A stretch of DNA of 64,000 nt from an uncultured candidatus Porisulfidus sp. (lineage in GTDB: Bacteria; Pseudomonadota; Gammaproteobacteria; Poriferisulfidales; Poriferisulfidaceae). The stretch lies in assembly GCA_965116025.1 (NCBI GenBank), contig OZ220480.1, positions 736,001 through 800,000 of the forward strand, written 5' to 3'. Below the pieces are notes generated by a model. The model saw only the letters and a program-made list of their open reading frames with translations, made no database searches and was not told where the DNA came from. Below are positions 2,386 to 53,228 of the stretch, piece after piece. A program made the translations under genes and the position numbers. Position 1 is the stretch's first letter; the number at the start of each line of letters is the position of its first letter.

Positions 2386-5300
2386 ATGACCAAGAGCCTA
2401 TCCATTTCCGATGTCATCCGCGCCGCGCTTCGCGTGGCTCCGTCGTCTTCCCGCATAGGGGGGGGGGGGGGGGGGGGGGGCATAGCCTCCGTTTCCTGAC
2501 CGTTCTGGCCGGTTTCGCGGCCTTTCTATCGATTCCGCTGATTCCAAACTCCGCCGAGGCGGGGACCACGGGGAATTGCGGCACGCCCAGTGCTAACGCG
2601 ATCACCTGTGGCGACGCGAGCTACACCAATACCGCCGGCTCCCCGATCAAGTATGGAGATCGGACCGTAGGCCTGACGCTGACCGTGAAGCCTTCTGGGG
2701 CGAGCACGGTCGTCGTCACCGCCTCGAAACTTCCCGCGACCACGAGCGAGGCGTTCCCGGGGATCCATCTGGACGGGGAAGGCACCCTGAAAGTCCTCTT
2801 GGATGGCGCCGTGAAAGTCGTGAACGGGGCGACCCGGACGACGGTGGACGCGACGCTCGCGGGCGAGACGGGGACTTTCAAGTTCATCCACCCGGATCAC
2901 AAGCTGGGCTCGCGGAACGACGGGGTGTACGTGGCGTACGACAAGGATGACGACGCGGGGACAACGACGGGCATGGTGGAGGTGATGGTGGGGAAGGACG
3001 CCGTGATCGGGAGCGAGACGGCGCCGGCGGGACGGTACGGGGTTCACGCCGCGTTCGTGGACGGGGACAGCGCCAACGCGAACTATCCAGCCGGGAAGAT
3101 CAAGGTGACGAACGCGGGCATGGTGCATGGCCACTACGCGGGGATTTACGCGAAGCACGACGGGAAGGGCGACATCGAGATCGAGACGTTGGAGGGGAGC
3201 GTGACGTCGATGGGGATTCGGGCGATCTCGAATAAAGCTGACAAGGCGGATCGGGGCGGGAATATCGCCATTCGCCATCATGGCCGGATCGTGGTCAAGG
3301 ATCCGGCTCGGTACGCGGACACGCTGACGATGGCGAACGTGGCCACGCCGCTGGAGATGGATAAAGTCAGCTTCCCCGACCGGCACAGAGGAGGGATCTA
3401 CGTGGAGCATTGGGAAAAGCGGGCGCCGACGGGCGCGAAGCCCAGCAGCTCGATCCTGGTCGAGTCGAGCGGCGACATCGTCGCCCATCCGATCCACGGC
3501 AAAGAAGGCGACAACAGAGCGAGAAGAAGCGCCATTTACGTCATCACGCGGGGGAACGGTGATTCCGTCGTTCCGGTCACGGTCGACGTGACGGGGGGCA
3601 CCCTGACGGCGGACGACCCGAGTGGAAGAAATGGAGGGAATGGGATTTACATCTATTACTCTCAGCACAAAGGCGGTTTGATCAAGGTGGATCTCGCCGG
3701 CGAGATTTCACGGACGGGAGACATAAGAGATGGAATCTCTATTAATAGACAATACAACGACACTAGCGACGATTCCAGCGATGTCAACAGAGACATAGAG
3801 GTGACGCTGAAGTCCGGGGCGCGGATCGGCATGGAGGGAGATGAGCCGACCGTGGGTCGGCGTGGCGTGTCAGTGACCCAGTCGACCAGCGGGGGAACGG
3901 TTCGGGTGGCTGTGGAGTCCGGGGCGCGGATCGGAACCGCGGGGACTCCGGTCGGCGAGAACGGGGTGGTCGCCGAGACCAGCAACGCCGATGACGAGAA
4001 CGACATCATGGTCACCAACGAAGGCCACATCCACGCGAAGGGCTCGGGAGTGGTCGCTCTGCATCGCGGCTGGGGCGACGTGGTCGTGACGCATTCGATG
4101 GGCGAGATCGTGGCGGGCGACGGGCCCGATATCTTGGACTCCTTATCCTTTTCGGAGGATCACAAGACGAAGCTGGCGGACCTGAAAGGCAGGCCCGCTG
4201 GCATCCTCGCCGTTCATGGAGGCTCGCAGCCCAAGCCGCTTCCCGGCAAGGATATCAGCAATAACGACCCCTCCACCTACGAGTCCGACATCGGGGAGAT
4301 CAAGATCACGTCGAAAGCGGACATCACGTCGAAGGGCGACGGCATTCTCGCCTACGTGAGAGACCTGAACGATGAGGGGGCCAGGAGCCCCAAGATGAGA
4401 GTCCCGATCATGATCGACGCGTCGGGCGGAACGATCACGGCGGACGGGCACGGCGTGCACGCGGAGACGGCCACCATCTACCAGGGCACCTACGCGGGGA
4501 CGGAGACCACCTACGACGATGCCACTAAGGCCGGGAAGATCACGGTCACGGTAGGCGAGATGGCGACGATCCGTGCCAAGAAGGACGGCGTTCACGTCAA
4601 GGGCATGCGGACCTTCGCGGAAAATCACGCCCGGAAGGGGCAATATGACCAGACGGTCACCATCAACGGCAAGGTGATGGGCGGCGCCGGCGAGCATGCT
4701 GGCGTTCGGATGGTGAACGGCGGGACGCTGGTGATCGGGCCGAAGGCGGAGATCGGCGCGGCGTCCGGGATCGCGGTGAAAGCGGATGGAGCGCTGCATG
4801 TCACCCTGAAGGAGAACGAGCATGGGCAGATCGCGTTCGTCATGGGGAAATTCCTGAATAGTGGAAAGGACGCGCCGAACGTCTTCCAGCGGGAGTTGAT
4901 GGCCGGCGCGAAGAAGACGATAGCCGTGGGGGACGCGGTGAAGGCGACATCGGGGAAGACGGGGACGCATGGAGTGTACGACGCGGTGTTTGAGCGGATG
5001 GTCACGCTGAAGTCGATCACGGGCGGGCATCAGTTCCAGGTGGACTCCGAGCGGGAGATCAGCCGGACGTACCACGCCCGGGCTCGGGTGTACGAGGCGC
5101 TGCCGTCGGTGCTGCTGGAGATGAGCGCGCCGGGCGGTCGTCAGGCGCGGTTGTCGGCGACGCGTGGCGGCGGGGGCGCATGGGCGCGGGTATTGGCGAG
5201 CGATGGCGAGCGGGAGGCGGATATGTCCACGACCGAGATGGACGATGCGGGCCGCGCGCTGTCTTGGGACTTCGAGCGCTGGGGCGTGGAGACGGGCTTC

Positions 5301-5975
5301 GTAGTTCCCGCGGACGCGCCGGGCGTGACGCTGGGCGTGAGCGCGCACTACCGTGACGGCGAGGCGGATGTCGCGCGCGGCGGGAAGATCGAGGTCTCGG
5401 GCGTGGGCGTCGGGACTTCGGCGACCTGGCGGGGGGAGGACGGCTGGTACGCGGACGGGGAGCTCTCGTACACGCGGTTCGAGGATGTCGACTTGAGCTC
5501 GGAGACTCGGGGGATGGTGGCGTCCGGTCTGGACGGAGAGGGTCACGCGGTCGGCGTGGAGGTCGGCAGGCGCATGGAGATGGATGGCTTCGCGCTGGTT
5601 CCGCGCGGGGGATTGACGTGGACTTGGGTGGATGTCGACGGCTTCGCCGACGTGTCGGGCGTTACCGGGAGTGGTCGGGTATTTTTCCGCTCGGAGGACA
5701 GCGCGCGGGCGCGTATCGGGGTACTGTTGGAGAACGGCGAGACGTACGCCTCATTGGACGTGGAGCGTGAGCTGTCGGAGAGCCGGGAGGTCATGGCGTC
5801 GGGGTCGCGGCTTCGCTCGGAGGTGGAGGCCACGTGGGCGCGTTTGGGAGTTGGAGGCGTGATGGCGCTGGACGCGCAGGGGGAGTCGACGCTATCGGCG
5901 GACGCTCACTACGCGGCATCGGACGGCGACAATCACGATTACGGCGCGAGCGTCCTGCTGAAGGTCCGCTTCTGA
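2386..5975 (+). CDS. autotransporter 1 (beta-helix passenger + C-terminal beta-barrel); frameshifted at a G23 tract in the signal-peptide region
   Basis: ATG 2386 follows AGGAAC. MTKSLS...SSRI-G23 leads to the h-region HSLRFLTVLAGFAAFLSIPLIPNSAEA in the frame of ORF 2685..5975. The barrel ends YGASVLLKVRF with a terminal Phe. Confidence 0.85.
2458..2480 (+). repeat. G23 homopolymer, translational phase-variation candidate
   Basis: CCCGCATA-G23-CATAGC; the 2386 ATG joins the passenger frame only with G(3n), e.g. G21 or G24. Confidence 0.85.
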
Positions 5976-6029
5976 TCCGGCCCAAAATCGGTGTCAGCTC
6001 GGAAATCTGGGGGTCAAACGATTCTGGAT

Positions 6030-16081: not shown

Positions 16082-16873
16082 ATGGCCCTGCCGCCGCCGC
16101 GGAAACGCCTGGGGCAGCACTTTCTGTCCGACGCGGCGAAAATCGAGGAGGTCGCGGCCGCGGTTGGCATCGCCGACACTTTGATTGAGATCGGTCCCGG
16201 CCGTGGCGCGCTGACGTTCGCGCTGGTGCCGCGGACCCGGAACCTGATCGCCATCGAGAAGGACCCGGTCCTCGCCGAATACCTGAAGCGCCGATTCGCC
16301 GACAACCCCGTGATCGAGATCCGTCACGCGGACGCGCTTCGGGAAGATCTGTCTCAGTATCCCACGGGCGCGCGGCTGGTGGGCAACTTGCCGTACAACG
16401 TGGCGACCGCGATGTTGCGGCGCTGGCTGGACCCGCGGATCCGCTTGGCGGACTTGACCGTGATGGTGCAGCGCGAGGTCGCGCTGCGCTTGGCCGCGCC
16501 GCCAGGGGACCCGTCGCGGGGGCAGCTGTCGGTGGCCGTCCAGCTATCGATGCGGGTCGAGCCGCTTTTCGATGTCGCGCCGGAATGCTTCGATCCGCCT
16601 CCCAAGGTCGTCTCCACCGTGGTGCGGCTCGCGCCGAGGAAGACCCTCCTCGTCAAGGAGGACGCGCGGGAAGATTTTCTGCGCCTCGTTCAGCAGGCGT
16701 TCGCCTCGCGCCGGAAGACCTTGCGCAACAATTTGCCGGAGATTCCGGATCTGGCGTGGGCGAGAGCGGAGATCGACCCGCGACGGCGGGCCGAGACGCT
16801 TTCGTGCGAGGAATTCGCCCGGCTGTTCCAAACGGTCCGCTCAGTCCAAGTCTCGGGCGACGCGGAAGCCTGA
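16082..16873 (+). CDS. rsmA: 16S rRNA m6,2A1518/1519 dimethyltransferase
   Basis: RKRLGQHFL, IEIGPGRGALT, VGNLPYNV, MVQREVA, PPPKVVS. Confidence 0.97.
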   Translation: MALPPPRKRLGQHFLSDAAKIEEVAAAVGIADTLIEIGPGRGALTFALVPRTRNLIAIEKDPVLAEYLKRRFADNPVIEIRHADALREDLSQYPTGARLVGNLPYNVATAMLRRWLDPRIRLADLTVMVQREVALRLAAPPGDPSRGQLSVAVQLSMRVEPLFDVAPECFDPPPKVVSTVVRLAPRKTLLVKEDAREDFLRLVQQAFASRRKTLRNNLPEIPDLAWARAEIDPRRRAETLSCEEFARLFQTVRSVQVSGDAEA

Positions 16874-18013
16874 TGTGCTCGTCGCGCCTTGCGGAAGTCT
16901 CGGCACGCGGGCCGCCGCTCGAAGCCATCTTTCTCCATTGAACCATGAGCCTCCTCGCATCACGCGTATGAAGCACAAGCCGAACTCCCATGCGCTTCCA
17001 TCCTTTGGCCTGCCCGAATAATCGGCGTGGTAGCAATCCTGCGTCCATTCCGCGACGTTCCCGATCATGTCGTACAGTCCGAACGCGTTCGGGGGATAGG
17101 ATCCCACGGGCGCGGTTCCTGTAAATCCGTCTTCGCAGGGAATGATCCGGTCATATTGAAAGATAAAGCCGTGGAAGCTGGCGCCCGTTTGATCGTATCC
17201 GTTGGCGAACGCGCAGGGATCGTCCTCGGGCGCCCAGTAGTTGGGCGTCGTGGATCCGGCGCGCGTCGCGTACTCCCATTCCGCCTCGGTCAGCAATCGA
17301 TAGCGCTTGCCCGTCAGGCCGGACGCCCACTGCACATACAGTTGCGCGTAATGCCAATTGACATTGGGCGTGGGACGTCGTCCTTGGCCGTAGCCCTCAT
17401 CGTCAGGCGTCCATCCACCGCAACCGCCCATTCGGACGCAGTGCTCCCAATCCTCGAAAGTCACCTCGAAAACGCCCACCGCGAACGGCGCCGGGATCGT
17501 CACTTCCGTTCGCGGGGATTCGTTCTGGTCGCGATGGGCTTCCGATTCTGGCGACCCCATGATGAACGACCCGGCTGGGATCACGACCATTCTCGGAGTG
17601 GTGTCGCAATCCCGGAAAACGTCGCCCGGCTCGAGTCCTTCGGACGCGTTCGGATCGCACTCGGCGATCCATTCGGCGTCGCTTAACGCGACATATCCCC
17701 GCAGGGCCGGCTGGTTTTTTTCTCGCGGCAGATCCACGAGATACCAAGCTCGCGTTTCCCGCGATAATTGGAGCGGGGTCCCCGCAGGGACCGTCGCGAC
17801 CACCGCGCTGTTCGGGTCTGGAGCATGTCTTACCGATCCCGGGTCAGCGAGCATGCGCAACTCCAGCGCGTCCGCTGGCGCGGGAACGGCGAAACTGGAG
17901 AGCGCCACCACGCTGAGCGTCAGGAGAGCGAGGACTCTGCCGAAGGCGCCTTGACCGAGCGCCCTTCTCGCCACGAAGGGAAAAAGCGAGATCGGTGAGC
18001 TATCGCGTCCCAT
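16841..18013 (-). CDS. SH3-like + FGE-sulfatase (SUMF1/EgtB/PvdO) domain exported protein
   Basis: FRDC..PRMVVIPAGSFIMGS, YRLLTEAEWEYATRAG, PNAFGLYDMIGNVAEW, RGGSW, GFRVARDL; N-terminal hydrophobic segment and SH3b-like VRHAPDPNSAVV..WYLV..GYV. Confidence 0.85.
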   Translation of the reverse strand: MGRDSSPISLFPFVARRALGQGAFGRVLALLTLSVVALSSFAVPAPADALELRMLADPGSVRHAPDPNSAVVATVPAGTPLQLSRETRAWYLVDLPREKNQPALRGYVALSDAEWIAECDPNASEGLEPGDVFRDCDTTPRMVVIPAGSFIMGSPESEAHRDQNESPRTEVTIPAPFAVGVFEVTFEDWEHCVRMGGCGGWTPDDEGYGQGRRPTPNVNWHYAQLYVQWASGLTGKRYRLLTEAEWEYATRAGSTTPNYWAPEDDPCAFANGYDQTGASFHGFIFQYDRIIPCEDGFTGTAPVGSYPPNAFGLYDMIGNVAEWTQDCYHADYSGRPKDGSAWEFGLCFIRVMRGGSWFNGERWLRAAARVPRLPQGATSTSGFRVARDLD

Positions 18014-18016
18014 CGC

Positions 18017-19261
18017 TCAATCCAGATCCCGGGCGATGCGAAGCCCTAGACTGCTGTAACTACCGCCTATCGTTCTTCTGGTGCGCGACGCCCACCGGTT
18101 TTTGTGTAAAGCGTAGGCCCACGCGCCGCCGCGCGTGACGCGAGCGTCGCAATCGCCCGCCTCCCAAGCGCTTCCGTCCGTCGGGGCGCCGAGATAACTG
18201 TCGTTGTAGCAGTCCTGCGTCCATTCGGCGACGTTTCCCACCATCTCATGCAACCCGAACGCGTTCGGTGGGAAGGAACCTACGGGGGCGCTGGCCACAT
18301 ATCCATCCGCGCATGGAAGATTCAAGCGGACCGAGGCCGCTAAGCCGGGAAGGGCCTTCATCGCCGTTTGGTCAAGGCCATTCAGACGCTCGCAATACGT
18401 CGATCCCTCTCCGGCATTCTGGCTGGGTCCCGCTGCTCCCGCCCGGGCGGCGTATTCCCACTCCGATTCGCTCAGTAGCCGATACCTTTTCCCTGTCACC
18501 GCGGACAGCCATCGCACGTACTGTCGCGCTTGCGACCAGTTCACGTTGATTAAGGGAAGGTTCCCGTGTCCAAGGCCGAGATCGTGGGGCGTGCTCGTGC
18601 CGCATCCCCCCGCTCTCTGGCAGGCGTCCCACTGCTCGAAGGTCACCTCGTACACTCCCGCCGCGAACGGAGTGGCGATCTCCACCTTTCGCTGGGGGCC
18701 TTCATGGGGCAACCGGTGTTTTTCCGATTCCGACGATCCCATGATGAAGCTTCCCGCGGGCACGACGACCATTTCCGGCGCCGCCGCGCAATCCCGAAAC
18801 CGGTCTCCTGGCCTTAAATCCGTAATTTCCGAAGAAGCGCAGTTGGCGGTCCACTCGACATCGCTTACCGAGACGTAGCCTTTCCGAAAGGAAGGCCCTT
18901 CCGAGTTCTCGTATGGCTCGACGAGATACCAGGTTCGCGTTTCCGAGATGGCCCGAAGGGGAGCGCGCGCGGGCACGGTCGAGATAATCTCGCTGTTCGG
19001 GTCCGGGGCCGCCCGTATCGCGCCCGGGTCGGCGCGCATGCGCAGAGTGATCATGCTGGATCTCAGCGGGTCCAGTTGCTGGGACCCGAACGTCGATCGC
19101 AAGATGAGCAACTCCTTGATGGTGAACTTGGACAGAAAACTAACGCCTTGGTGAATCGACGACCAATTCATCAGAACGAAATAAGCCAACAGAACCATGG
19201 CGAGAACGCCGACAGTCCCCGCGACCCCCTTCCAAGACTTCAGGAATCTCGCCCCGCTCAA
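18017..19261 (-). CDS. SH3-like + FGE-sulfatase domain membrane-anchored protein (paralog)
   Basis: Same architecture: IRAAPDPNSEII..WYLV..GYVS, PEMVVVPAGSFIMGS, LSESEWEYAARAG, GLRIARDLD. Confidence 0.85.
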   Translation of the reverse strand: MSGARFLKSWKGVAGTVGVLAMVLLAYFVLMNWSSIHQGVSFLSKFTIKELLILRSTFGSQQLDPLRSSMITLRMRADPGAIRAAPDPNSEIISTVPARAPLRAISETRTWYLVEPYENSEGPSFRKGYVSVSDVEWTANCASSEITDLRPGDRFRDCAAAPEMVVVPAGSFIMGSSESEKHRLPHEGPQRKVEIATPFAAGVYEVTFEQWDACQRAGGCGTSTPHDLGLGHGNLPLINVNWSQARQYVRWLSAVTGKRYRLLSESEWEYAARAGAAGPSQNAGEGSTYCERLNGLDQTAMKALPGLAASVRLNLPCADGYVASAPVGSFPPNAFGLHEMVGNVAEWTQDCYNDSYLGAPTDGSAWEAGDCDARVTRGGAWAYALHKNRWASRTRRTIGGSYSSLGLRIARDLD

Positions 19262-30200: not shown

Positions 30201-30319
30201 TCAATATGAATGGTAACGATTTGGAGCTAACATTGGCGGGCCGGACGGTCACCCTGTATTTCACTGAGCTCCACCGCGACGATCTTGAGGCGGTGATCAA
30301 GGTCGATGAGGAGAAATGA
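27232..30319 (+). CDS. sacsin-like GHKL ATPase with C-terminal HNH-like domain; split by a +1 frameshift at an A7 run (28840..28846)
   Basis: ATGA overlap with the helicase; HFIYELLQNAEDA, FEHNGRPF, IGRFGIGFKAVF; C-terminal ICQACR..YFETVEF..NYLALCPN. Deleting one A fuses ORFs 27232..28863 and ..30319 (KKKERENAREF). Confidence 0.8.
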
Positions 30320-34744: not shown

Positions 34745-36550
34745 TCATTCATCTGCCTCGTTCTCTGTTACAACCTTTTTACCCATCGCGCCTTCAACGA
34801 GCTTGGACAGTGCTCGCATGCGTGTGGCGAAGAATGAGTCAAAGTCGTCGTTGCGTAGATGCTCTGGTTCAATGAGATGGGATCGCAAAATATCGTCCAA
34901 TATCGAGCCATCTACGCCTTTATCCTCAATCTTTTTTAGGTATGCGGAAGGGGACTCCCCGCCAATTGATCTGTTTGTTGTCTTGGACAATGGTGTCTTA
35001 TTGATGATGGAATTGAAGTTTCTTGGCAGGATATTCCGTTTCTCGCACCAGTTCCGTGGAAAGATGTGGTGGATATCGATTTGGTGGTCGAAGAATGAGA
35101 TTATTTCCACGGGTTGGCCGGTCACGAAATCTCGGCAATTACGCATAAGCAGTGCGTGAATGCTCTTGTAGGCGGCCGAGGTGCGGGCACGTAGAGAGTA
35201 AAATCGTTCCTGATTGAAAACTGCCTCATCAAGTGTTCGGGGCTTTGGTCCCTGATCTTGGATCCAGCTGACAAGCTCTGGTACGTCCCTAGCGAGACGT
35301 GTTTCAGTGCTGGATCCATAAAGTTCACCTAGAGCAACCGACCAGAACCAGCGTTCAATTTTTTCGCTCGCGGACGGTGTGTGTGCATCTTGGCCAAGGA
35401 TGGCGAAAGTGGATGCGAGACCGACCGTGAGTGTGTTGTAAGGAACGTCTTTATGCCAAATGATTTTGTGCTCATTCAGGAAGGTGGCCGCATTTTTCAT
35501 TCCATCTTCAACTGCGTCGGCATGTCTTCGGTAGTTGGCGAGCGGGAGGGCCAATAATGCATCGCGATTACAACTGATCCCGGGAAGGTTTTTCTTCTCT
35601 ACACCTTTTGCGGCGCATTCCAACTTGCGTTTTCGTGTGTGTAGTAATGTACAAGCTTGCAGAAAATCGTCACCTTTGATTTTGGTGAGCACGTCACGCG
35701 GGCTGGGATATCCGACGATTCGGTCTCTCCGTCCGGTCGCGGAACTGTCATCCGGACCGTACCAATCACTTCGTAGATCGAAATCGCTGGCGGCGAAGAT
35801 GGCTGTAAGTAAGTCGAATACATCCAGTTGCTTACCGCCCACATTGACTTTCTCGAAGATCAGGCAAATTGCTGCGCGGCTGTTGTCTTGGTCGAGTCGG
35901 ATGAGAGGCATTTGGTACATTTCGATTTTTTTGATTATGTCGTGGAATCCTTCTTCAAGATCAAAAAAACCCTTTCCCTTATCCCGCCAGTATTTCTGCC
36001 ATTCGAAAAACCAATCTCGGTTATCAAAGGATTGGTTCAGGGGAAACATGTTTTCCTCAATTTCACGACTACCTGTTGACAAGTCACACTCAATGTTTCG
36101 CCCGAAATTTTCCCGTGTTTTTCGATCCGTTGGCACACTAATAATCGCATCCTCAATGTCTGCCTCAGCACTTAGTGCTTTTCGGATGTCAAGATAGTAG
36201 AACCGATTTATCTTTTCGCCTCGATGATTTCGCGTTTGAACTGGCTGGCTGGCATACATTGACTGGTAGATAGACGTGATCCGCTGTTGACCGTCTAGTA
36301 GCAGTTCGTCTGGGCTGATCTCGCGAGCAAGAACCACTCCAGCGAGAGGGCGAGGTTTGAATCGAAGTTCACACCCCGCCTCAAGGGTTAGCAATGTTCC
36401 AACAGGAAAGCCTTTGGCGATAGATGCGATAAGGCTACGGATATCCTCATCGCTCCAAACGTAATCTCTTTGAAAGTCCGGAAGTTGAAGGTGACCATCA
36501 TGAACGGCACGTAGAAGATCAACAAGACTTTTCTTCGCGATGTCAAACAT
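34745..36550 (-). CDS. DUF262/DUF1524 GmrSD-like modification-dependent restriction protein
   Basis: ATG 36550; LQLPDFQRDYVW, LLLDGQQRITS, IFEKVNVGG; C-terminal DIHHIFP..N..N HNH-like motif. Confidence 0.88.
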   Translation of the reverse strand: MFDIAKKSLVDLLRAVHDGHLQLPDFQRDYVWSDEDIRSLIASIAKGFPVGTLLTLEAGCELRFKPRPLAGVVLAREISPDELLLDGQQRITSIYQSMYASQPVQTRNHRGEKINRFYYLDIRKALSAEADIEDAIISVPTDRKTRENFGRNIECDLSTGSREIEENMFPLNQSFDNRDWFFEWQKYWRDKGKGFFDLEEGFHDIIKKIEMYQMPLIRLDQDNSRAAICLIFEKVNVGGKQLDVFDLLTAIFAASDFDLRSDWYGPDDSSATGRRDRIVGYPSPRDVLTKIKGDDFLQACTLLHTRKRKLECAAKGVEKKNLPGISCNRDALLALPLANYRRHADAVEDGMKNAATFLNEHKIIWHKDVPYNTLTVGLASTFAILGQDAHTPSASEKIERWFWSVALGELYGSSTETRLARDVPELVSWIQDQGPKPRTLDEAVFNQERFYSLRARTSAAYKSIHALLMRNCRDFVTGQPVEIISFFDHQIDIHHIFPRNWCEKRNILPRNFNSIINKTPLSKTTNRSIGGESPSAYLKKIEDKGVDGSILDDILRSHLIEPEHLRNDDFDSFFATRMRALSKLVEGAMGKKVVTENEADE

Positions 36551-36589: not shown

Positions 36590-36622
36590 ATTATACCCCC
36601 CCCCCCCCCCCCCCCTTGTCAA
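36590..36622 (-). promoter_or_regulatory. sigma70 promoter with poly-G spacer: TTGACA-A-G20-TATAAT (21-bp spacer), upstream of the GmrSD-like gene
   Basis: Perfect consensus -35 (36617..36622) and -10 (36590..36595) bracket the C20 run at 36596..36615. Confidence 0.85.
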
Positions 36623-39790: not shown

Positions 39791-39956
39791 AGGCGGCGCA
39801 TTATATATGAAACGCTCGACCTCAGTCGCCGAAATCTTGGGGCGAGTCGGAGCGGCTGGATCGACGCGCTCACCGCCCCGGTCGCGAAGGCTTCTGGCTT
39901 GACATAGGAAAACGCGCGGATTAGGATTGCCTTGCTCCCGAGCGGAAACCCGCCCC

Positions 39957-41132
39957 GTGCCCGACTACAAACGCCTCGCTCTGCCGCGTCCCGTTCCGCT
40001 GGAGGAGGGCCTCGACCAAGCGCTGTCGGTCCTGAACGGGATGTTCGACGCCGACGACTTCCATGTCCTTCGAAACGGTGATCGCGTGGATGTCTGGCTT
40101 CGTCAGGTGAATATGGAAGATTTGGCGGCCGCCGTCGCTCGCGTGGAATCCGAACACGGAAACAAGGACGCGATGCGCGGCGTCTTCCAAGCGGTGGAAG
40201 GAGTCCGCAGCTATGGGCTTAACGGCAACAAGCGTTTGTACGTCGGCTACAACAGAGAGAGGAAGGTAGCGAACCGCAAAGCGAAGGTTCTGCGCCGGGG
40301 GAGTCATTTCTACGCGAACGACCACGCGTTCGAGCGTGGCGATAACGCCCTGCCCGCGTCGATGATGGACCGGATCGTTTGCGCCGACAGCGAGACCGCG
40401 CTCCGGGATCTGCCCGACAACTGCGTCGACTTGGTTTTCACTTCTCCGCCCTACAACTTCGGGCTCGGCTACGGCGCTACCCCGGAAGCCGACAGTGACG
40501 CGATCGACTGGGACGCTTATTTCTCCAAACTGTTCGCCGTCTTCGACGAGTGCATCCGGACGCTCAAGTTTGGCGGGCGAATCGTGGTGAACGTCCAGCC
40601 CCTGTTCTCGGATTACATCCCAAGCCATCACGTCATCTCCCAGTTTTTCATGGAGCGCAAATTGATCTGGAAAGGAGAAATCCTGTGGGAGAAGAACAAC
40701 TACAACTGCAAGTACACCGCGTGGGGAAGTTGGAAGAGCCCGTCCAGTCCCTACCTCAAGTATACGTGGGAGTTCGTGGAGATCTTCTGCAAGGGGAGTC
40801 TCAAGAAGTCCGGCGCGTCCGCCGACGCGGACATTGACGCGGATTCTTTCAAGGAATGGGTGAACGCGAAGTGGTCCATCGCTCCGGAACGGCGGATGCG
40901 GGAATATGGACATCCCGCCATGTTCCCGGAGGAGCTGGCGAGAAGAGTGATGCTCTTGTTCAGTTTTCGGGGCGATACCGTGCTGGACCCGTTCAACGGC
41001 GTTGGGACCACCACCGCTGTTGCGGCGCGCCACGGAAGACATTTCCTAGGCATCGATGCCGTGCGGGAATACTGCGACTCGGCGCGAGAACGGTTGGCGA
41101 AAGTGTGTCGGCAAACCCGACTTCATGTCTGA
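39957..41132 (+). CDS. site-specific DNA methyltransferase (N4-C/N6-A, beta-type order) with an N-terminal extension
   Basis: Motif IV FTSPPYN precedes HPAMFPEEL and motif I VLDPFNGVGTT; start is GTG 39957 or TTG 39927. Confidence 0.9.
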   Translation: MPDYKRLALPRPVPLEEGLDQALSVLNGMFDADDFHVLRNGDRVDVWLRQVNMEDLAAAVARVESEHGNKDAMRGVFQAVEGVRSYGLNGNKRLYVGYNRERKVANRKAKVLRRGSHFYANDHAFERGDNALPASMMDRIVCADSETALRDLPDNCVDLVFTSPPYNFGLGYGATPEADSDAIDWDAYFSKLFAVFDECIRTLKFGGRIVVNVQPLFSDYIPSHHVISQFFMERKLIWKGEILWEKNNYNCKYTAWGSWKSPSSPYLKYTWEFVEIFCKGSLKKSGASADADIDADSFKEWVNAKWSIAPERRMREYGHPAMFPEELARRVMLLFSFRGDTVLDPFNGVGTTTAVAARHGRHFLGIDAVREYCDSARERLAKVCRQTRLHV

Positions 41133-41832
41133 TTTTCCAGCGTCGCGTCACGCGATCATTCGATACTACGACATGCTTGTTGGTGGGATCAATGACAAAG
41201 CCATAGCGGAACGGGAACGTGCCTACGGGGGCGTCATCCGTGCTGGAAAAGGCCAGTTGGTGGAATGGATCGCCTCTCACATCATTGGCTTGGCATGGCG
41301 GGAACGAGGCGGCGCTCGGGCCCGGCTCTCGTTTGGCGAAAAGAAGACGTACCTCGTGCCAATCCGGCAGGAGTACGTGGAGCGAATGCCGGAGGACGTA
41401 AGACCATATGTCGCTAATCGCACCGACAAATACGCGTATCGCGCTCAAGTAGATGTTCACGCCTTCATTGATGGCGAATTCGCGCTTGGAATGGAATGCA
41501 AGGCGTACACCGAGAACGCGATGCTCAAGCGCATACTTGTTGATTTTCAGTTATTGAAGTCGATCCGCCCTCATCTTATCTGTTGTCTGTTGCAGTTGGA
41601 AAGTCAGTTGGGAGGCGGCTATTCGAATCCATTGGCGGCCCCGCAAATGGGAAGCCCACGTAGCCATGCGTTGATGTCTTACTTCCCGGAAGTCGACTTG
41701 AACGTTCTCACCCTGCTTGAGGGAGAGCGGCGGATCAATCAACCTATCCACATTCCCAATTACTTTAAAGAACTCCGTCCAGAATGTCTGGATCACGCCA
41801 TCAACCAGGTTGGCGACTTGCTCGCGACTTAG
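41125..41832 (+). CDS. putative type II restriction endonuclease (PD-(D/E)xK)
   Basis: Overlaps the MTase stop; QVDVH..GMECKAY motif. Confidence 0.65.
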   Translation: MSDFPASRHAIIRYYDMLVGGINDKAIAERERAYGGVIRAGKGQLVEWIASHIIGLAWRERGGARARLSFGEKKTYLVPIRQEYVERMPEDVRPYVANRTDKYAYRAQVDVHAFIDGEFALGMECKAYTENAMLKRILVDFQLLKSIRPHLICCLLQLESQLGGGYSNPLAAPQMGSPRSHALMSYFPEVDLNVLTLLEGERRINQPIHIPNYFKELRPECLDHAINQVGDLLAT

Positions 41833-42067
41833 TTTGACGTCTTCACTCGGCGGTGTTTCCGAAATGGACGCGAGCGCGTCTTCCCGTCGACGAGCTTGCC
41901 GAAGACTGGCTGGGTGGTGAAGTAGAGATCGGCCAATACTTGTCGCTACGTCGCGATCCGGTCCATCTTGGAAGGCGGGCTGATGGTGGGGGTGATGCCG
42001 CTCGGTTAGATGGAACTGGCGATCCAAACCGCTGACCACCGCGTGCGCTGGATGGCGATATCGCGAG

Positions 42068-43378
42068 TCAGCTCGATCCGTTCCCGCCCGCCGGTTTCCC
42101 TCGGCGCGCGGTGGCGCTAAGCAGAGTGGAGATGTTCACCGAAAGCGCTGACAGATGAGACAGGGCGACAGCCATTCTGGATTCCAACGTCGCCAACGGA
42201 TCCTCTTCCTCCGTGAAATCTTCCACTCCCTGGTCCACGTCCCATTCACGCGCGAAACGGACCGCTTCCGAAGGGCTCATCATCCATTGCGCGTTCTCGT
42301 CCGACATCTCTGGATGCGCCATGTTGGTCAGATACGCTTGGCAATGGTAGGCTGGCTTCCCGTTTTTTGCTGGCAATTCATCGATTCCGATTCCAAATTC
42401 GCCTGGCAGACCGCGTCGGGTTCCGATAATGAGCGTTCTTCGCGACCCCCCCGGAACCGGAGCATCCAAGGGCGCGCATTCGAGGTTTGAATCCGGGTCC
42501 GATACTGGCGACCACAGCGCGTCTGGAGTCTTCGCTATCGCCGCGCGCGATTCCGCGCTCAGTCGCGTTTTGGTCACGAAGCCGATCACGCCAAGTCGGC
42601 GCAGCTCTTCTGAGCGCGATTCCGGGTCGTCGCAGAAACTGCCCGTTTCCTCCTGAAAGATCGCGCTGTCTAAATAGACGCGCACGCGCTTGATTTCGGG
42701 GGGTATGTGAGACAGCATGCGCTCCAGAAGCCGTTTTCCACGTTCCTCAATCGGATTTCCATCTCTCAGCATATCCAGGCCGACCGTGGTCCCGAACTCC
42801 GAACAGAACGCGGTCAGTGGCCGGGTATCGGTCTCGCCGCGGTTAGCCAGCGAGTCCCCACGCTGGTTTGGCGACGCGCCCATCGCGTTCAGGCTGAGCG
42901 TCAACTCTTCCAGCTCCGCCTTCTCGATTAGGAACGAGGTCAAGCGCCACGACGCGCCCTCAAATATTCGTGGGCTCGGCGCGGAGCTCGATCCATCCGA
43001 ATCTTCCCGAAAAGAGCTCAGCCACTCGTCCAGGGCGATCATGGACGGAAAGGTGCGCCGGCGTTTGCCCCGAAAGCGAGCTGCCAGCTCCTTTTTCGTT
43101 ATTCCCAGAATATCCGGTTCGCGCTCGCGAATCAGCCGGCACAGGGGACGGTCCGCCTCCAGCGTTTCTATATCCGTGATATCGTCCTTCTCGAACGCGT
43201 CCGGAAGCAACACGGACAGCGCCATTTGCCCGCAGGTCCAGCCTTTCTCGCCCACTGGCATGTCATGCAGGACTTTCGCCTCGCACAGGAGGTCCAGCCA
43301 TAGGGTGAATTTCATGTCGAGAGTGAACTCGCTTAAATCCGGGTCGCCCCGCACTTGGAACGGACTGGAAAAATTCAT
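42068..43378 (-). mobile_element. IS1380-family transposase-derived ORF, open but catalytically degenerate
   Basis: GWTCGQM, ELAARFRGKRRRTFPS, LRDGN, VRVYLDSA, GVIGF; the usual TLDxDAT motif reads TLSLNAM; N-terminus is paralogous to the 23637 ORF. Confidence 0.65.
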
Positions 43379-43823
43379 GCTAACGAGGCTCCAATGAGGT
43401 TTTCGCGGCGCGTCTTTCGCTTCAATCGGATGAATATCAACTAGAATCGCCCGACTACCCAAGGCGAAACCGCCATACGCCATGCCGCCGGACATGGTTG
43501 ATTCTTCCTGCCCATCATAGTACACCCGCTCGCGTTCTCGGATTCCCATGCGCCAAATTCCCGTGTTCGAAGCGCTAGTTGGACACCAAAATTCGTGTCA
43601 ACGGACCAACGATTTCAGGCTTCATATCCGAAGATGCCGCCCTAAACTGCCCAAGGCCTGAAGTCCTTGAATTGAATGATTCGGTGAACATCATCCTTGC
43701 TCGCTACGCTCAATTTTCAATGATGGGCGAGAGTGAATCTTCTAACCCGCATTAGAGTTGAAAGCGGTGGGAGCGCGGGACATGCTGTAAGATTTTCTGT
43801 CCCAAAACGCGCAGGAGGCTCTA

Positions 43824-44367
43824 ATGCCTGAAATTTCGGTCAAGCAACCCACTTTCAACCGTCTCAAGCGCCATGCCGAACCGATTGAAGACACGGGGGA
43901 AAGACGTAATCAATCGCGCCTTGGACGCGTTGGAGCGTGAGAGCGCGCGGGCGGATCCAGAGAAGGTCATGCCGACCGTGGGACACCAGATTGATCCCCA
44001 GGCGTTGCCAGATCTGACGCACACGAAGGTTCTGATCGCAACGGTCGCGGGCCAAAGCGTGGGCAAACCGAAATGGAAAAAGCTACTGAGAACGATGCTG
44101 GCCCACGCCATCAAGCGGGGTTCGGATATCGACCGGCTAAAGGAGGTCAGCCACGCCATGGTTCAAGGCCGAAAGGAAGATGATGGATACCTGTATTGCG
44201 AAGAAATGGGCATCTCGCTCCGGCCATTGAACGCCAATGCTTCCTGCCGAACGCTGGTGGCGGTCGCCAAGAGTCTCGGGACTGGGCTTGAGGTCGCGTT
44301 TATGTGGGGCTCCGAAGAAGGTGTTGCTCGCCCGGGCGAGATAGGCTGGTTTCGCTTGGGTGAATAG
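43824..44367 (+). pseudogene. SepA/SeqA-N-like small protein with a +1 frameshift at GGGGGAAA (43895..43902)
   Basis: AGGAGG RBS, ATG 43824 MPEISVKQPTFNRLKRHAEPIEDTG, continuing in another frame as DVINRALDALE..PDLTHTKV..KPKWKKLL. Confidence 0.55.
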
Positions 44368-44521
44368 TCGTTGACGGGCCGTTGGCTTGGGTGAGACGGC
44401 GCGTCTCCTCGGGCACGGTTTCCGTGCGGAGACACCGTCGAGACTCCCCCGGATGTCGTTGAATGGCTTCAGGCTATTTCGCGATATTGCTCACTCCATT
44501 ATTCTAAAGAGGGACATTCCG

Positions 44522-45286
44522 ATGATTCAAGACGTTCGGACGCTTCTGGATCAATACCGGGTTTGGCTGAAAGACAGAACCGGTCTCCGAGAAATTGATG
44601 GCTGGGTAGAGATCACCACGCCCTATCTCGATCACCACAATGACTATCTCCAGGTTTACGTCAAGCGCGCGCGAGACGGCTTTGCGCTGACGGACAAAGG
44701 GTATGTTCTGGAAGACCTCAAGATGTCTGGATGCGAGATAGACAGTCCAAAGCGGAAGGCGCTTATCAGAATGACGCTAAATGGATTTGGCGTGCTGTTG
44801 AATGGACAGGCGCTGGAAGTCAAGGCGTCAGTGGACGACTTCGCGTTGCGGAAGCATAATCTCGTTCAGGCGATGCTCGCGGTCAACGACCTTTTTCATC
44901 CGTCCGCGTCCTTGACCACGAGCTTGTTTCACGAGGACGTGACGGCTTGGCTCGATCTTTCCCGAATCCGCTACACACCAAGCGTCAAGTTCACGGGCAA
45001 GAGCGGTTACGATCATCGCTTCGACTTCGTTATACCAAAGTCGGAGTCCGAGCCCGAACGCGTGCTACGAGTGATCAATCGCCCAAATCGCGACGCGGCG
45101 CAGGCGATGGTGTTCGCGTGGATAGAGACCAAGGAGGCGCGTCCAGCCGAGACCCGAGCTTACGCGCTGTTGAACGACTCCGAGAAAACCGTCTCCGAGA
45201 GCGTGCGGAACGCGATGCGCAGCTATCAGGTGGATCCGATTCTATGGTCGCGACGCGACGATGCCGTAAACGCTCTGATCGCGTGA
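44522..45286 (+). CDS. DUF1828/DUF1829 family protein
   Basis: EITTPYLDHHNDYLQVY, LTDKGY, HNLVQAMLAVNDLF, TGKSGYDHRFDFVIP. Confidence 0.8.
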   Translation: MIQDVRTLLDQYRVWLKDRTGLREIDGWVEITTPYLDHHNDYLQVYVKRARDGFALTDKGYVLEDLKMSGCEIDSPKRKALIRMTLNGFGVLLNGQALEVKASVDDFALRKHNLVQAMLAVNDLFHPSASLTTSLFHEDVTAWLDLSRIRYTPSVKFTGKSGYDHRFDFVIPKSESEPERVLRVINRPNRDAAQAMVFAWIETKEARPAETRAYALLNDSEKTVSESVRNAMRSYQVDPILWSRRDDAVNALIA

Positions 45287-51627: not shown

Positions 51628-51634
51628 CCTCGCC

Positions 51635-52017: not shown

Positions 52018-53157
52018 TTAGGCGATGAAGATGAAATCGAAGTCGTCGACGGTCAGGTCGCCCGCGTTGAAATCCTTCAACGTGATGGTGTCTCCCTCAT
52101 CGCCATAGCCGACGACCGTGTCCTTGCCTTTTTGCGAGATTCTCAATTTCCCGAAAGCGTCCTCGTCCAAGAGGTCCGGATCGTCAAAGAGGGGGGCTGG
52201 ACCGTCGAGGTGGAGTTGGATGATATCTCCACGACCAGATTCCCGGGCCGCCAAGAAAGCTTCGTACGTAGGGAGATAGTCACTGCTTCCGCTAAAGCCG
52301 AAGCCAAAGTCATTGATGACGTCGTTCCCATCGCCCTCGCGAAACACGAAGGTCTCGGCGCCCCAGCCACTTTCCATGACATCGTTGCCTTTGCCGCCAT
52401 TCATGATGTCGTCGCCCCAGCTGCTTTCCAGGATGTCGTTGCCCTTTCCGCCGTTCAGGGTGTCGTCGCCCCAGCCGCCTTCCAGGATGTCCTGACCCTT
52501 CCCGCCATACAGCGTGTCGTCGCCCCAACTGCCATCCAGGATGTCCTGGCCCTTCCCGCCATACAGCGTGTCGTCGCCCCAACTGCCATCCAGGATGTCC
52601 TGGCCCTTCCCGCCGCGCAGCGTGTCGTCGCCCCAGCCGCCGTTCAGGGTGTCGTTTCCATTATGTCCTTGCAGAACGCTGTCGCTCCAGCCAGCTACCA
52701 GCACGTCGTGGCCATTTCCGCCGGTCAACTCGCCATCGCCTTCCCGAACGACGCCGCCCCCCGTCTCCGCGACGGTCTCAACAAAATGAAAGTCCTCCGC
52801 CGTCAGGAGGTGATTCCCGTTCTCGTCGATCAGGTCCGCGACGTCGCGCAGGATGATCTTGTTGCCGCTGTCGTCCCACCGAATCGTGATGACGCTTTCC
52901 GAAGCGTCCACATCGAAGCGCAGGTCGTCGAACGTCCCGTCGAGTTGCGTGAACCGAATCATGTCGCCTTTCTCGAAGTCGAGGATGGTGTCGACGCCGT
53001 TCCCCCGGTCCGTCTGGAATATGAAGAGGTCCTTCTTATCGGTGGCCTGATGCGTCTCGTTCCAGTACTGAAGCTCCGGGTTCGCGTAGAGGCGCTCAAG
53101 CGTGTAAGGCGAATAGTTTTCGCTGGTGGCTTTTTCGCGGTCTCGGAATATCGCCAT
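52018..53157 (-). CDS. RTX-type calcium-binding repeat protein (probable type I secretion substrate)
   Basis: GGxGxD nonapeptides (GGKGQDILD/GSWGDDTLY), FVFREGDGNDVINDF, C-terminal LTVDDFDF; GAGGAG RBS. Confidence 0.88.
   Translation of the reverse strand: MAIFRDREKATSENYSPYTLERLYANPELQYWNETHQATDKKDLFIFQTDRGNGVDTILDFEKGDMIRFTQLDGTFDDLRFDVDASESVITIRWDDSGNKIILRDVADLIDENGNHLLTAEDFHFVETVAETGGGVVREGDGELTGGNGHDVLVAGWSDSVLQGHNGNDTLNGGWGDDTLRGGKGQDILDGSWGDDTLYGGKGQDILDGSWGDDTLYGGKGQDILEGGWGDDTLNGGKGNDILESSWGDDIMNGGKGNDVMESGWGAETFVFREGDGNDVINDFGFGFSGSSDYLPTYEAFLAARESGRGDIIQLHLDGPAPLFDDPDLLDEDAFGKLRISQKGKDTVVGYGDEGDTITLKDFNAGDLTVDDFDFIFIA
52350..52660 (-). repeat. 54-bp (18-aa) tandem repeats encoding RTX nonapeptide pairs
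   Basis: Near-identical units such as GTGTCGTCGCCCCAACTGCCATCCAGGATGTCCTGGCCCTTCCCGCC repeated with 54-bp period. Confidence 0.85.
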
Positions 53158-53201
53158 GATTTTTCTCCTCGCTGGTGGTGGATCGATCTCTGATGGCTCC
53201 G

Positions 53202-53228
53202 AGTATACCCCCCCCCCCCCCCTGTCAA
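53202..53228 (-). promoter_or_regulatory. sigma70 promoter with a pure poly-G spacer: TTGACA-G15-TATACT, upstream of the RTX gene
   Basis: -35 at 53223..53228 and -10 at 53202..53207 bracket the C15 run at 53208..53222. Confidence 0.85.

Follow-up and report, generated by a model that had tools for sequence, protein, structure and literature searches.

The four long G/C homopolymers in the analysed window, a 64,000-nt stretch of an uncultured candidatus Porisulfidus genome, are probably slipped-strand contingency switches belonging to a genome-wide set of 45 such tracts, a reading to which we assign a probability of roughly three in four. Our best reading is a phase variation that would be classical in kind, acting on both translation and transcription, and unusual in its length range. 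The genomes directly show how the tracts are built, that they are not randomly placed, that their design is conserved, and that near-identical paralogues differ in tract length. Length variation within the population, reversibility, and expression following tract length are what we infer from them.

Listing every homopolymer of at least 7 nt in the window returned 13 runs. Nine of them are 7 nt long, and the remaining four are G or C runs of 15–23 nt (Table 1). Their coordinates and lengths agree with those given in an earlier note on this DNA, and, as that note had also stated, no housekeeping gene contains any of them. Its description of them as a set of four holds within the window, not as a total, because the whole-genome scan it had proposed found 45 G/C tracts of 15–39 nt (median, 22 nt) in the 2.02-Mb single-contig genome, the window's four included, mostly in autotransporter, restriction/defence, and glycosyltransferase contexts. 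Under an iid model, the whole genome should contain 0.08 G/C runs of at least 15 nt; extrapolation from the observed decay of run lengths 3–8 gives 1e-4. G/C runs of 8 nt occur nine times in the genome, and runs of 9–14 nt do not occur at all. The tracts are therefore over-represented, and they are enriched in surface, secretion, and restriction genes. Their placement in the window is length-sensitive: what depends on tract length is the reading frame at tracts 1 and 2, and at tracts 3 and 4 the −35/−10 spacing.

Table 1. Positions of the four tracts and of the associated genes and promoters in the window (AT, autotransporter; T1SS, type I secretion).
Feature	Coordinates	Strand	Description
Tract 1	2458–2480	+	G23; between AT1 leader ATG and signal-peptide core
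Tract 2	20392–20414	+	G23; between AT2 leader ATG and signal-peptide core
Tract 3	36596–36615	−	G20 (C20 on the forward strand); promoter spacer, GmrSD-like gene
Tract 4	53208–53222	−	G15 (C15 on the forward strand); promoter spacer, RTX-repeat gene
AT1 leader ORF	2386–2499	+	encodes MTKSLSISDVIRAALRVAPSSSRI, tract read as Gly codons; 37 aa
AT1 body	2481–5975	+	1164 codons, no interrupting stop
AT2 leader	20326–20391	+	encodes MIKEKACRFQYRSRRASAHSRI; SD-like GGAG 5′ of ATG 20326
AT2 body	20417–23086	+	889 codons; PF03797 beta-domain, residues 625–858
GmrSD-like gene	34745–36550	−	601 aa; N-terminal PF03235 (DUF262)
GmrSD-like promoter	36590–36622	−	TTGACA 36622–36617, A, G20 36615–36596, TATAAT 36595–36590
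RTX-repeat gene	52018–53157	−	379 aa; PF00353 nonapeptide repeats
RTX-repeat promoter	53202–53238	−	TTGACA 53228–53223, G15 53222–53208, TATACT 53207–53202
HlyD-like gene	53347–54237	+	divergent from RTX-repeat gene
C39-peptidase ABC exporter	54250–56472	+	same T1SS cluster
Second ABC protein	56476–59385	+	same T1SS cluster (53347–59385)

Long homopolymers could also arise from sequencing or assembly, for example as two-colour poly-G or polishing errors, and the draft genomes of three relatives (L125, L140, and L148) do show artefact-like G50 runs where contigs end, as well as untidy G-rich sequence containing N. However, all 45 tracts are internal to one contig and flanked left and right by unique sequence, and the same flanks are common to 24 paralogues. 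In a separate assembly of a public run, a contig bridges tract 3 without a gap, again as C20, although this is a single run (n = 1) that may be the source data, and its DNA contigs cannot display minor length variants. Single-contig relatives (n = 7) likewise carry 5–14 tracts of at least 15 nt each. Only the exact lengths are uncertain, and we consider an artefact extremely improbable.

Tracts 1 and 2 had been placed between the ATG and the h-region of autotransporter signal peptides, and the anatomy of both genes agrees with this placement. In autotransporter 1 (AT1), an SD-like AGGA stands about 8 nt 5′ of the leader ATG, tract 1 begins 72 nt on from this ATG, and the body contains, in order, the signal-peptide core HSLRFLTVLAGFAAFLSIPLIPNSAEA, the passenger, and the PF03797 beta-domain (residues 917–1132). 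At G23 the leader frame meets a TGA at 2497–2499 and is out of frame with the body; AT1 would be ON only if the tract length is a multiple of three (21 or 24). Tract 2 starts 66 nt past the ATG of autotransporter 2 (AT2) and is followed by (L)SRFLTFLASFTATLSISLIPHSAMA, so that AT2 would be ON only with a length leaving a remainder of one modulo 3 (22 or 25). Both genes are thus OFF at the assembled G23, single calls that are soft, since assembled lengths above 20 nt are perhaps off by one base. A TTG at 20417, two bases past tract 2 and in the frame of the AT2 body, is a possible tract-independent start that could bypass the switch; in a paralogue with an ATG at the equivalent site, the gene call begins at that ATG. 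Behind the tracts, a charged residue, a hydrophobic core, and an AxA-like site can be recognised by eye as a putative signal peptide. The C-terminal beta-barrel translocator domain is present in both AT1 and AT2 (PF03797 at 86 and 101 bits), with a further match to TIGR01414. Leaders of in-frame paralogues gave no match to the Pfam ESPR model at E-values up to 5, passenger residues 1–906 matched no Pfam family, and a sequence search with a family profile found no solved structure. The earlier designation of the two proteins as adhesins is unproven.

In the mechanism that we propose, replication slippage would alter how many G residues separate the signal-peptide core of a type Va autotransporter from the short leader. 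A −10-like box, a Shine-Dalgarno site, and an ATG belong to the leader itself. Only one of three length classes would fuse it, via a Gly7–8 linker, to the body of 889 or 1164 codons; with the other two classes, translation would stop after a short peptide and no protein would be exported.

This arrangement extends over nearly the whole autotransporter repertoire of the genome, as 30 of the 45 tracts, 16–27 nt in length, stand 5′ of 30 of the 32 PF03797 beta-domain matches. All 24 family-A paralogues have the tract between a conserved leader (M..IRAALRGASSSSRI) and HS(L/P)RFLTVLAG, and the distance from the leader ATG to the tract is a multiple of 3 nt in 23 of them. An SD-like tetramer precedes the leader ATG in 20 of the 24 genes, and a −10-like hexamer lies 36–62 nt 5′ of it in 23 of 24. 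In the controls, the first ATGs of long ORFs have such a hexamer in 52 of 682 cases, and random positions in 192 of 20,000. Behind the tract, every family-A body is open (24/24; 889–1166 codons). The six family-B genes have giant bodies, with stop-free frames reaching 9644 codons. Three paralogue pairs, with 300-nt downstream flanks that are 93–97% identical and free of gaps, differ in tract length (G23/G17, G20/G25, and G23/G21); unequal tracts beside such near-identical flanks would read as hypermutability. No second strain of the species was found: the leader motif had no hits in the metagenome collection or in any of 52 other genomes from the order. The comparison with related genomes that the earlier note had suggested revealed the tract-before-signal-peptide design in relatives and in other assemblies. 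Three of three tract loci examined in a same-genus genome (G015) carry C23 or C24 directly 5′ of an autotransporter signal peptide, behind leader sequences unrelated to those of this genome, and homologues from another assembly (48% identity) show Gly6 or Gly8 at the corresponding place in the leader.

Tracts 3 and 4 fill the space between the −35 and −10 hexamers, as previously proposed, in front of genes with a ribosome-binding site. The hexamers around tract 3 match the consensus at 12 of 12 positions (6/6 and 6/6) and those around tract 4 at 11 of 12 (6/6 and 5/6). Tract 3 is the only place in the window with the pattern TTGACA-N13–23-TATAAT, for which chance would give 0.01 occurrences. 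At the RTX-repeat promoter, TTGACA is supplied by the tandem pentamers CTGAC-TTGAC-TTGAC-A (53238–53223), and the spacer measures 15 nt when counted from this hexamer and 20 nt when counted from the TTGACT upstream of it. The GmrSD-like promoter has a spacer of 21 nt. Slippage at these two tracts would shift the distance between the hexamers and thereby tune how strongly the RTX-repeat gene and the GmrSD-like gene, which is type IV restriction-like, are transcribed. At the assembled spacers of 21 and 15 nt, neither promoter should be more than weakly active, if active at all. G15–G17 at tract 3, three to five slippage steps away, or G16–G18 at tract 4 would bring the spacer back to 16–18 nt. 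Scanning the intergenic regions of the two genes found no sigma-70-like sites spaced 16–18 nt. The statement that all four tracts are OFF or suboptimal as assembled is therefore borne out, with two frames out, spacers of 21 and 15 nt, and no alternative sigma-70-like sites spaced 16–18 nt.

The GmrSD-like gene lies on a low-GC islet (49–53% GC), and an SD-like AAGGTG precedes its ATG. The DUF262 (ParB-like) domain is well matched (PF03235, 103 bits, residues 11–252), and among solved structures the best relative, the 'DUF262 domain-containing protein' 7p9k, matches over the N-terminal motif only. The C-terminus matches weakly to PF07510 (15.5 bits with a cut-off of 23; residues 463–530) and HNH_4 (11 bits). 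In the RTX-repeat gene, the Shine-Dalgarno sequence GAGGAG stands 7 nt 5′ of the ATG. The protein contains five stretches of calcium-binding nonapeptide repeats (PF00353, 141 bits), and its 140-aa N-terminus matched no family. Scores for the RTX-toxin and serralysin models of NCBIfam were far under the cut-offs, and we therefore refer to it as an RTX-repeat protein rather than as a recognised toxin or protease. The divergently adjacent HlyD-like, C39-ABC, and ABC genes, which have their own TATAAT at about 53305, likely encode its exporter.

Beyond the autotransporters, eight tracts touch restriction or defence genes, three are within a glycosyltransferase (GT2) cluster, one is at a T1SS junction, and one is at the RTX promoter. 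Among the tract-bearing genes are those for Type ISP, Eco57I-like type IIG, N6_Mtase, and N6_N4 MTase enzymes, as well as DUF499, PAPS-reductase, and HATPase_c_3 proteins. These gene classes match those of known phasomes. MutS and MutL are intact in the genome and should damp slippage.

The tracts might instead be run-away homopolymers in decaying accessory genes of a small reduced genome, mostly dead rather than reversible switches. Among the intragenic tracts with a readable frame, 29 of 38 are out of frame, and only 4 of the 24 family-A genes are ON where 8 would be expected (binomial P = 0.06); this surplus would also fit decay. So would the promoter spacers of 21 and 15 nt, lengths that far exceed the needs of switching (median 22, up to 39), an insertion sequence that also interrupts a tract-bearing methyltransferase gene, and the lack of an RTX-repeat orthologue among 15 same-genus genomes. 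Yet about a quarter of the tracts are in frame, near the third or so that neutral length drift alone predicts. Moreover, the 24 family-A and six giant family-B bodies have remained stop-free over 889 to 9644 codons, and the open bodies of family-A genes that are mostly out of frame argue for selection. The tract occupies one exact position relative to ATG, Shine-Dalgarno site, and signal peptide in 30 genes, and other species repeat the design with unrelated sequences. We regard decay as unlikely.

Slippage might also occur predominantly at the RNA level, producing mixed frames from every gene at any tract length in the DNA and making the tracts constant attenuators instead of heritable switches, which would be compatible with the contingency-switch reading. 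Transcriptional slippage at long poly-A rescues frameshifted genes in insect endosymbionts. The tracts of 15–39 nt exceed the 8–9-bp RNA:DNA hybrid, so RNA-polymerase slippage may add to DNA slippage, and all tracts are at least 15 nt long with none of 9–14 nt. However, the studied polymerases slip less on G/C runs than on A/T runs, and the two promoter-spacer tracts, which act before a transcript exists, would be left unexplained. We give little credence to a dominant role of RNA slippage. The same length distribution might hint at G-quadruplexes or i-motifs that regulate transcription or translation by folding and not by length, because a three-tetrad G-quadruplex with 1-nt loops needs an all-G run of at least 15 nt, exactly the minimum tract, and the 9–14-nt class is empty. 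Folding is nonetheless very improbable, given that the mRNA of family B and of several defence genes carries the C strand, not the G strand, and that strict frame and −35/−10 placement is needed by a length-counting switch, not by a folding element.

Autotransporter and promoter-spacer homopolymer switches are already known. Phase-variable type Va autotransporters with intragenic homopolymers include NalP and MspA/AusI of Neisseria meningitidis, CapA of Campylobacter jejuni, and BapC of Bordetella. They share with AT1 and AT2 a 5′ poly-G/C run whose length sets the frame between start codon and body, but their tracts are about 8–14 nt, compared with 16–27 nt here, and concern one or a few genes, whereas here 30 of 32 beta-domain matches carry a tract within a fixed leader/signal-peptide-core module. 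Promoter-spacer switches with a homopolymer between −35 and −10, whose length sets promoter strength, are found in porA (poly-G) and opc and fetA (poly-C) of N. meningitidis, fim2/fim3 (poly-C) of Bordetella pertussis, and vlp (poly-A) of Mycoplasma hyorhinis. In contrast to these, the hexamers here are at or near full consensus, the tract makes up the entire spacer (G20 and G15), and control falls not on porins or fimbriae but on a GmrSD-like defence gene and a T1SS substrate with RTX repeats. We know of no GmrSD-type gene with such a promoter. Phasevarions rely on repeats in phase-variable type I hsdS and type III mod genes, and the tracts within the Type ISP, type IIG, N6_Mtase, and N6_N4 MTase genes resemble them. 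The defence gene of the window, however, is controlled at the promoter and not in its coding sequence, and no phasevarion-style epigenetic regulation is expected from it, because the GmrSD-like enzyme is type IV-like, of methylation-dependent type, without a methylase. Campylobacter lacks MutS/MutL mismatch repair and has a GC content of about 30%, whereas this genome has both proteins and a GC content of 63%. The Campylobacter poly-G phasome (PhasomeIt) resembles the present set in that a small genome carries poly-G/C tracts by the dozen, most of them within ORFs, that the genes concerned serve surface structures and restriction-modification, and that ON/OFF states are deduced from the frame (PMC6321876). 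Campylobacter lengths peak at 9 (53%) and 10 (26%) with 13–15 rare, in contrast to a minimum of 15 and a median of 22 here (PMC6321876).

The contingency-locus programme envisaged in the earlier note is supported by 45 tracts concentrated in autotransporter, restriction/defence, and glycosyltransferase genes. Nothing indicates coupling between the loci; each looks like a switch of its own. Such a programme may point to a host-associated lifestyle. Across two families of the order, G/C tracts of 15–70 nt occur and tracts of 9–14 nt do not. It is conceivable, though we advance it only tentatively, that the lineage has, despite intact mismatch repair, a distinct long-tract regime of phase variation that places a near-whole autotransporter repertoire and much of its defence under stochastic control. 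If so, a population would show a shifting small subset of its surface proteins, stochastic control would span 30 autotransporter genes, one of them with a 9644-codon frame, and a system resembling antigenic variation would exist in a non-pathogenic, possibly sponge-associated symbiont.

The 64-kb window contains 13 homopolymers of at least seven nucleotides, nine of exactly seven and four longer, and these four are the very runs that the earlier note had proposed as phase-variation switches on surface, secreted and defence genes (see table). We also scanned the genome for long G/C runs, as the same note had suggested, and classified the contexts of the 45 tracts found. The genome, of which the window covers positions 736001–800000, is a single contig of 2,018,984 bp with 62.7% GC, in which G/C run lengths are bimodal: their number decays steeply up to 8 nt (by a factor of 0.18 per base, down to nine runs of 8 nt), no run of 9–14 nt exists, and the 45 tracts then measure 15–39 nt (median 22, mode 23, with eight of the nine 23-nt tracts in the autotransporter family A). 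Only 0.08 runs of at least 15 nt are expected under an iid model, and 1e-4 when the decay of the observed run lengths 3–8 is extrapolated. The poly-G tracts are real and far above chance, and their origin as an artefact is very improbable. The longest A/T run does not exceed 10 nt, repeats of 3–9-nt units are absent at the thresholds used, and dinucleotide repeats are confined to 48 short ones of 6–9 units (46 CG or GC, 2 TC). MutS and MutL are intact. The leading strand carries the G strand of 32 of the 45 tracts because of gene orientation. The cumulative GC skew has its minimum at ~0.70 Mb and its maximum at ~1.70 Mb, which places the window just clockwise of the probable replication origin.

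Long G/C tracts and neighbouring features (window coordinates, unless C1, the contig of the genome G000, is given)
Feature	Position	Run	Remark
Tract 1	2458–2480	G23	AT1 leader
Tract 2	20392–20414	G23	AT2 leader
Tract 3	36596–36615	G20, minus strand (C20 forward)	promoter of GmrSD-like gene
Tract 4	53208–53222	G15, minus strand (C15 forward)	promoter of RTX-repeat gene
Sulfotransferase gene	1135–2166		just upstream of AT1
Two tandem paralogues	16841–19261		SH3 domain and FGE-sulfatase domain
DrmD-like SNF2 helicase	24020–27235		PADLOC DrmD, E = 1.8e-119
TmtA-like sacsin/HATPase-type protein	27133–28863, 28697–30319		split over overlapping ORFs; 50% GC stretch
Type II MTase	39927–41132		restriction-modification pair
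Type II REase	41056–41832		restriction-modification pair
IS1380-like ORF	42068–43549		weak
PDC-M24B gene	44387–45286		DUF1828/DUF1829
GT2 paralogues (L155)	C1: 90005, 97045	G30, G39	3' ends of both genes; the genome's longest tracts
Family-B giant	C1: 108600–137600	C29	9644-codon open frame ending in beta-domain; run separates leader ATG from putative signal peptide; as assembled, out of frame
ABC/HlyD junction (L157)	C1: 396727	C25	25 nt ahead of T1SS-type ABC gene stop, 18 nt ahead of HlyD ATG
Tract-less family-A gene (L165)	C1: 508000–511000		full-length; ordinary, uninterrupted leader
Family-A paralogue	C1: 1011129	G20	catalogued protein P0002

Tracts 1 and 2 interrupt the leaders of two autotransporter genes, AT1 and AT2, whose C-termini are autotransporter beta-domains (PF03797, 86 and 101 bits; TIGR01414 matches too). 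The AT1 leader starts at ATG 2386, with AGGA ~8 nt and TATAAT 46 nt upstream, and comprises 24 codons, MTKSLSISDVIRAALRVAPSSSRI, after which the tract is read as GGG codons; the body frame after the tract opens with HSLRFLTVLAGFAAFLSIPLIPNSAEA and continues for 1164 codons without a stop. Because tract 1 begins on a codon boundary and the body at the base right after it, AT1 is ON, with leader and body in frame, only when the tract length is a multiple of three. At G23, the leader terminates at TGA 2497–2499, and the body frame has no ATG, GTG or TTG before 2685, a point beyond the putative signal peptide. AT2 has the same layout (ATG 20326, a 22-codon leader and an 889-codon body) with one base fewer between tract and body, so that it is ON only at lengths that leave a remainder of 1 on division by 3, and OFF at G23. 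A TTG at 20417, 2 bases past tract 2, lies in the body frame and gives MSRFLTFLASF..., and a paralogue at genome position 545783 has an ATG at this place, where the catalogued protein P0023 starts. The G run of tract 2 might serve as an SD-like leader and permit some tract-independent expression of AT2. The autotransporter passenger gave no Pfam match at E values up to 5 and nothing in a PDB profile search.

PF03797 matches the genome in 32 places: 24 genes of family A with a tract, AT1 and AT2 among them, six giants of family B, the single full-length family-A member without a leader homopolymer and one weak fragment. All 24 tract-bearing genes of family A share the module of leader, G16–27 and HS(L/P)RFLTVLAG. 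Their leader ATG lies a multiple of three bases ahead of the tract in 23 of the 24 genes and has an SD-like tetramer upstream in 20, and a -10-like hexamer stands 36–62 nt upstream in 23, compared with 192 of 20000 random positions and 52 of the 682 first ATGs of ORFs of at least 400 codons. In family B (6/6), the leader is followed by C18–29 on the coding strand, with a putative signal peptide ~20 residues further. The tract-less family-A gene serves as a natural comparator, always on, for the 24 paralogues with a putative switch. The canonical leader of the P0002 paralogue is out of frame at G20. An ATG 148 nt upstream, which belongs to the +1 frame of that leader, does read in frame into the gene and gives the catalogued 1211-aa protein, so that a second ON length class may exist at some loci.

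Tracts 3 and 4 occupy promoter spacers. Tract 3 reads TTGACA-A-G20-TATAAT on the minus strand, with a spacer of 21 nt, followed by a 39-nt leader with AAGGTG and by ATG 36550, which opens the gene of a 601-aa protein; the single TTGACA-N13-23-TATAAT of the window lies at this tract, against 0.01 expected. At its N-terminus, the protein carries GmrSD_N/DUF262 (103 bits), accompanied only by a sub-threshold GmrSD_C/HNH signal, with PDC-M55C and HEC-05 as top PADLOC models, and its gene lies on a low-GC islet (49–53% GC), with lgt/thyA on one side and a divergent DUF255 thioredoxin-like gene on the other. Together with the genes at 39927–45286, it makes up a defence-rich stretch with interleaved housekeeping genes. 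Tract 4 reads TTGACA-G15-TATACT on the minus strand, with a spacer of 15 nt, and is followed by GAGGAG, 7 nt and ATG 53157, which opens the gene of a 379-aa protein. This protein carries RTX nonapeptide repeats (141 bits) besides a 140-aa N-terminus without a family match. The divergent neighbours, an HlyD-like gene, a C39-ABC exporter and a second ABC gene, constitute a type I secretion system that likely exports the RTX-repeat protein. The -35 box of tract 4 is the last of three tandem pentamers, CTGAC-TTGAC-TTGAC-A (53223–53238, minus strand), and further -35-like hexamers therefore lie 5 and 10 bp upstream; with this 5-bp phasing, several tract lengths differing by 5 nt could each yield a usable spacer.

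The spacer optimum of sigma-70 promoters is 17 ± 1 nt. A promoter scan of the intergenic regions of tracts 3 and 4 found no sigma-70-like site with 16–18 nt spacing. Because their spacers of 21 and 15 nt depart from the optimum, the GmrSD-like and RTX-repeat genes should be silent or weak as assembled, tract 3 being three to five and tract 4 one to three slippage steps away from a working spacer. With both G23 tracts out of frame as well, the earlier view that all four tracts are OFF or suboptimal as assembled holds.

The 15 tracts outside the autotransporter genes comprise eight related to defence, three in a glycosyltransferase cluster, one at an ABC/HlyD junction, the RTX promoter and two unclassified ones. 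Apart from the GmrSD-like promoter, the defence tracts belong to one Type ISP and one Eco57I-like type IIG enzyme, to an N6_Mtase that includes a specificity part and to an N6_N4 methyltransferase, whose gene an insertion sequence interrupts as well; the others concern a DUF499 protein, an HATPase_c_3 protein, and a PAPS-reductase gene adjoining an AAA_23 gene and a BglII-type system. The third tract of the glycosyltransferase cluster, besides those of the two GT2 paralogues, lies in a small DUF120-like gene. The opposite strand of G39 reads TTGAAA-G-C39-TAGAAT, a promoter-like pair directed antisense into the gene. Length changes at the ABC/HlyD junction would affect no more than the tail of the ABC protein or translational coupling, and no gene would be switched off. 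The split of the TmtA-like protein in the window could reflect a frameshift in a defence gene or a mistake of the assembly.

Of the 38 intragenic tracts whose frame could be read, the assembly has nine in frame (4/24 in family A, 3/6 in family B and 2/8 among the others), where the assembled lengths of 15–39-nt runs may be off by a base; four or fewer in family A has a probability of 0.06 against an expectation of one-third. This excess of OFF states, together with the tract 3 spacer far from its optimum, is what decay of the loci without adaptive switching would leave behind, but 30 long bodies have remained free of stops and the placement of the tracts is precise and recurrent, which makes decay an unlikely explanation.

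Tract length appears to change readily. In three pairs of paralogues, the 300-nt downstream flanks are 97.0%, 94.3% and 93.3% identical and gap-free, beside tracts of G23/G17, G20/G25 and G23/G21, respectively; indels therefore accumulate far faster in the tract than in the adjoining sequence. A 12.3-kb contig from one public run spans tract 3 and has C20 without any difference, although minor length variants do not show in contigs. A second strain was not found in the genome, metagenome or protein collections: 23 of the 31 protein matches came from this genome, with no near-identical allele from elsewhere, and a degenerate two-flank tract pattern gave 0 stretches in the metagenome collection. 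A metagenome search for TTGACA-(0–1 nt)-G12-(0–14 nt)-TATAAT returned 12 stretches, and in none of them does an uninterrupted run of at least 15 G fill the spacer, a result that says little because short-read assemblies break at such runs. The nearest named records are uncultured 'Chromatiales' MAGs with 82–83% Obg identity.

Among relatives, G runs of at least 15 nt are present in 11 of the 15 genomes of the same genus, 0 of 7 from a family with genomes of 0.9–1.2 Mb and 5 of 7 from a third family. Artefact-like G50 runs stand at contig ends of draft relatives. Seven single-contig relatives have 12, 5, 5, 14, 12, 8 and 6 tracts, up to G45 and G70; these two runs, in sister-family genomes (L206 in G026 and L212 in G028), make very long G tracts a trait of the wider lineage. 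In G015, a genome of the same genus, five of 12 tracts lie within ~0.3–0.6 kb of the 5' end of PF03797-matching open frames by coordinate comparison, and the three loci that were read have C23 or C24 and then a putative signal peptide in one frame, with leaders unrelated to those described here. Elsewhere in the order, the 23-nt DNA motif of the family-A leader is missing: the 52 other genomes gave no match at up to 3 mismatches. Family-A homologues with 48% identity, from an assembly outside the order's 53 genomes, carry Gly6 and Gly8 at the same leader position, and for three neighbours on the same contig the catalogued protein begins at an internal start. For the RTX-repeat protein, the 15 same-genus genomes gave no match, and the GmrSD-like homologues (best 43% identity) have no G/C run of at least 8 nt or A/T run of at least 9 nt within 1.5 kb at 12 of the 13 non-self loci, L189, which overlaps L183, being omitted; hence, these loci offer no orthologous tract to compare for the two genes.

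We consider slipped-strand mispairing at independent loci the best reading, with a probability of about 0.75. Slippage in an autotransporter leader tract would switch the frame, and slippage in tracts 3 and 4 would change the spacer length of the promoters, which might thus work as 'volume controls'. The 45-tract set, spread over autotransporters, defence and secretion, supports the contingency programme of the earlier note, and nothing points to the coupling between loci that it had included. Every tract is longer than the RNA:DNA hybrid, so that RNA-polymerase slippage could blur the DNA state; as the explanation of the tracts it is improbable, and it is compatible with slipped-strand mispairing. 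Regulation of the quadruplex type is highly unlikely.

Contingency loci are a textbook trait of animal pathogens and commensals. Intragenic homopolymers are well known from autotransporters (NalP, MspA, CapA, BapC), as are spacer tracts from the promoters of porA, opc, fetA, fim and vlp, and phase variation is familiar in restriction genes too. The kind of switch is therefore classical, and the parameter range is unusual. According to PMC6321876, poly-G/C lengths in Campylobacter peak at 9 (53%) and 10 (26%), with 13–15 rare, whereas the present tracts measure 15–39 nt with an empty 9–14 class, in a mismatch-repair-proficient background of 63% GC. Unlike classical systems, the tracts cover the autotransporter repertoire almost completely, a promoter-spacer tract stands before a GmrSD-like gene, and the organism is an uncultured gammaproteobacterium with a small genome. 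Among the papers searched, none connects phase-variable autotransporters with sponge symbionts, or such tracts with sponge or marine symbionts; the accessible portion of PMC10947273 lists only an inverse autotransporter.

Nearly all autotransporters stand behind such tracts, as do glycosyltransferases, a secreted RTX-repeat protein and several restriction systems, and the tracts have about double the length of those studied before; this would amount to a contingency strategy at full scale. If the tracts vary, assembled genomes of such lineages would systematically mis-annotate switch genes as truncated or absent, and the closed genome would provide a defined set of 45 loci, whose length dynamics could be measured from metagenomic reads in a mismatch-repair-proficient, high-GC background. 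Variation of the tracts would also imply strong and fluctuating selection on the surface and phage defences of the organism, for example by host phagocytosis or recognition, or by phages.
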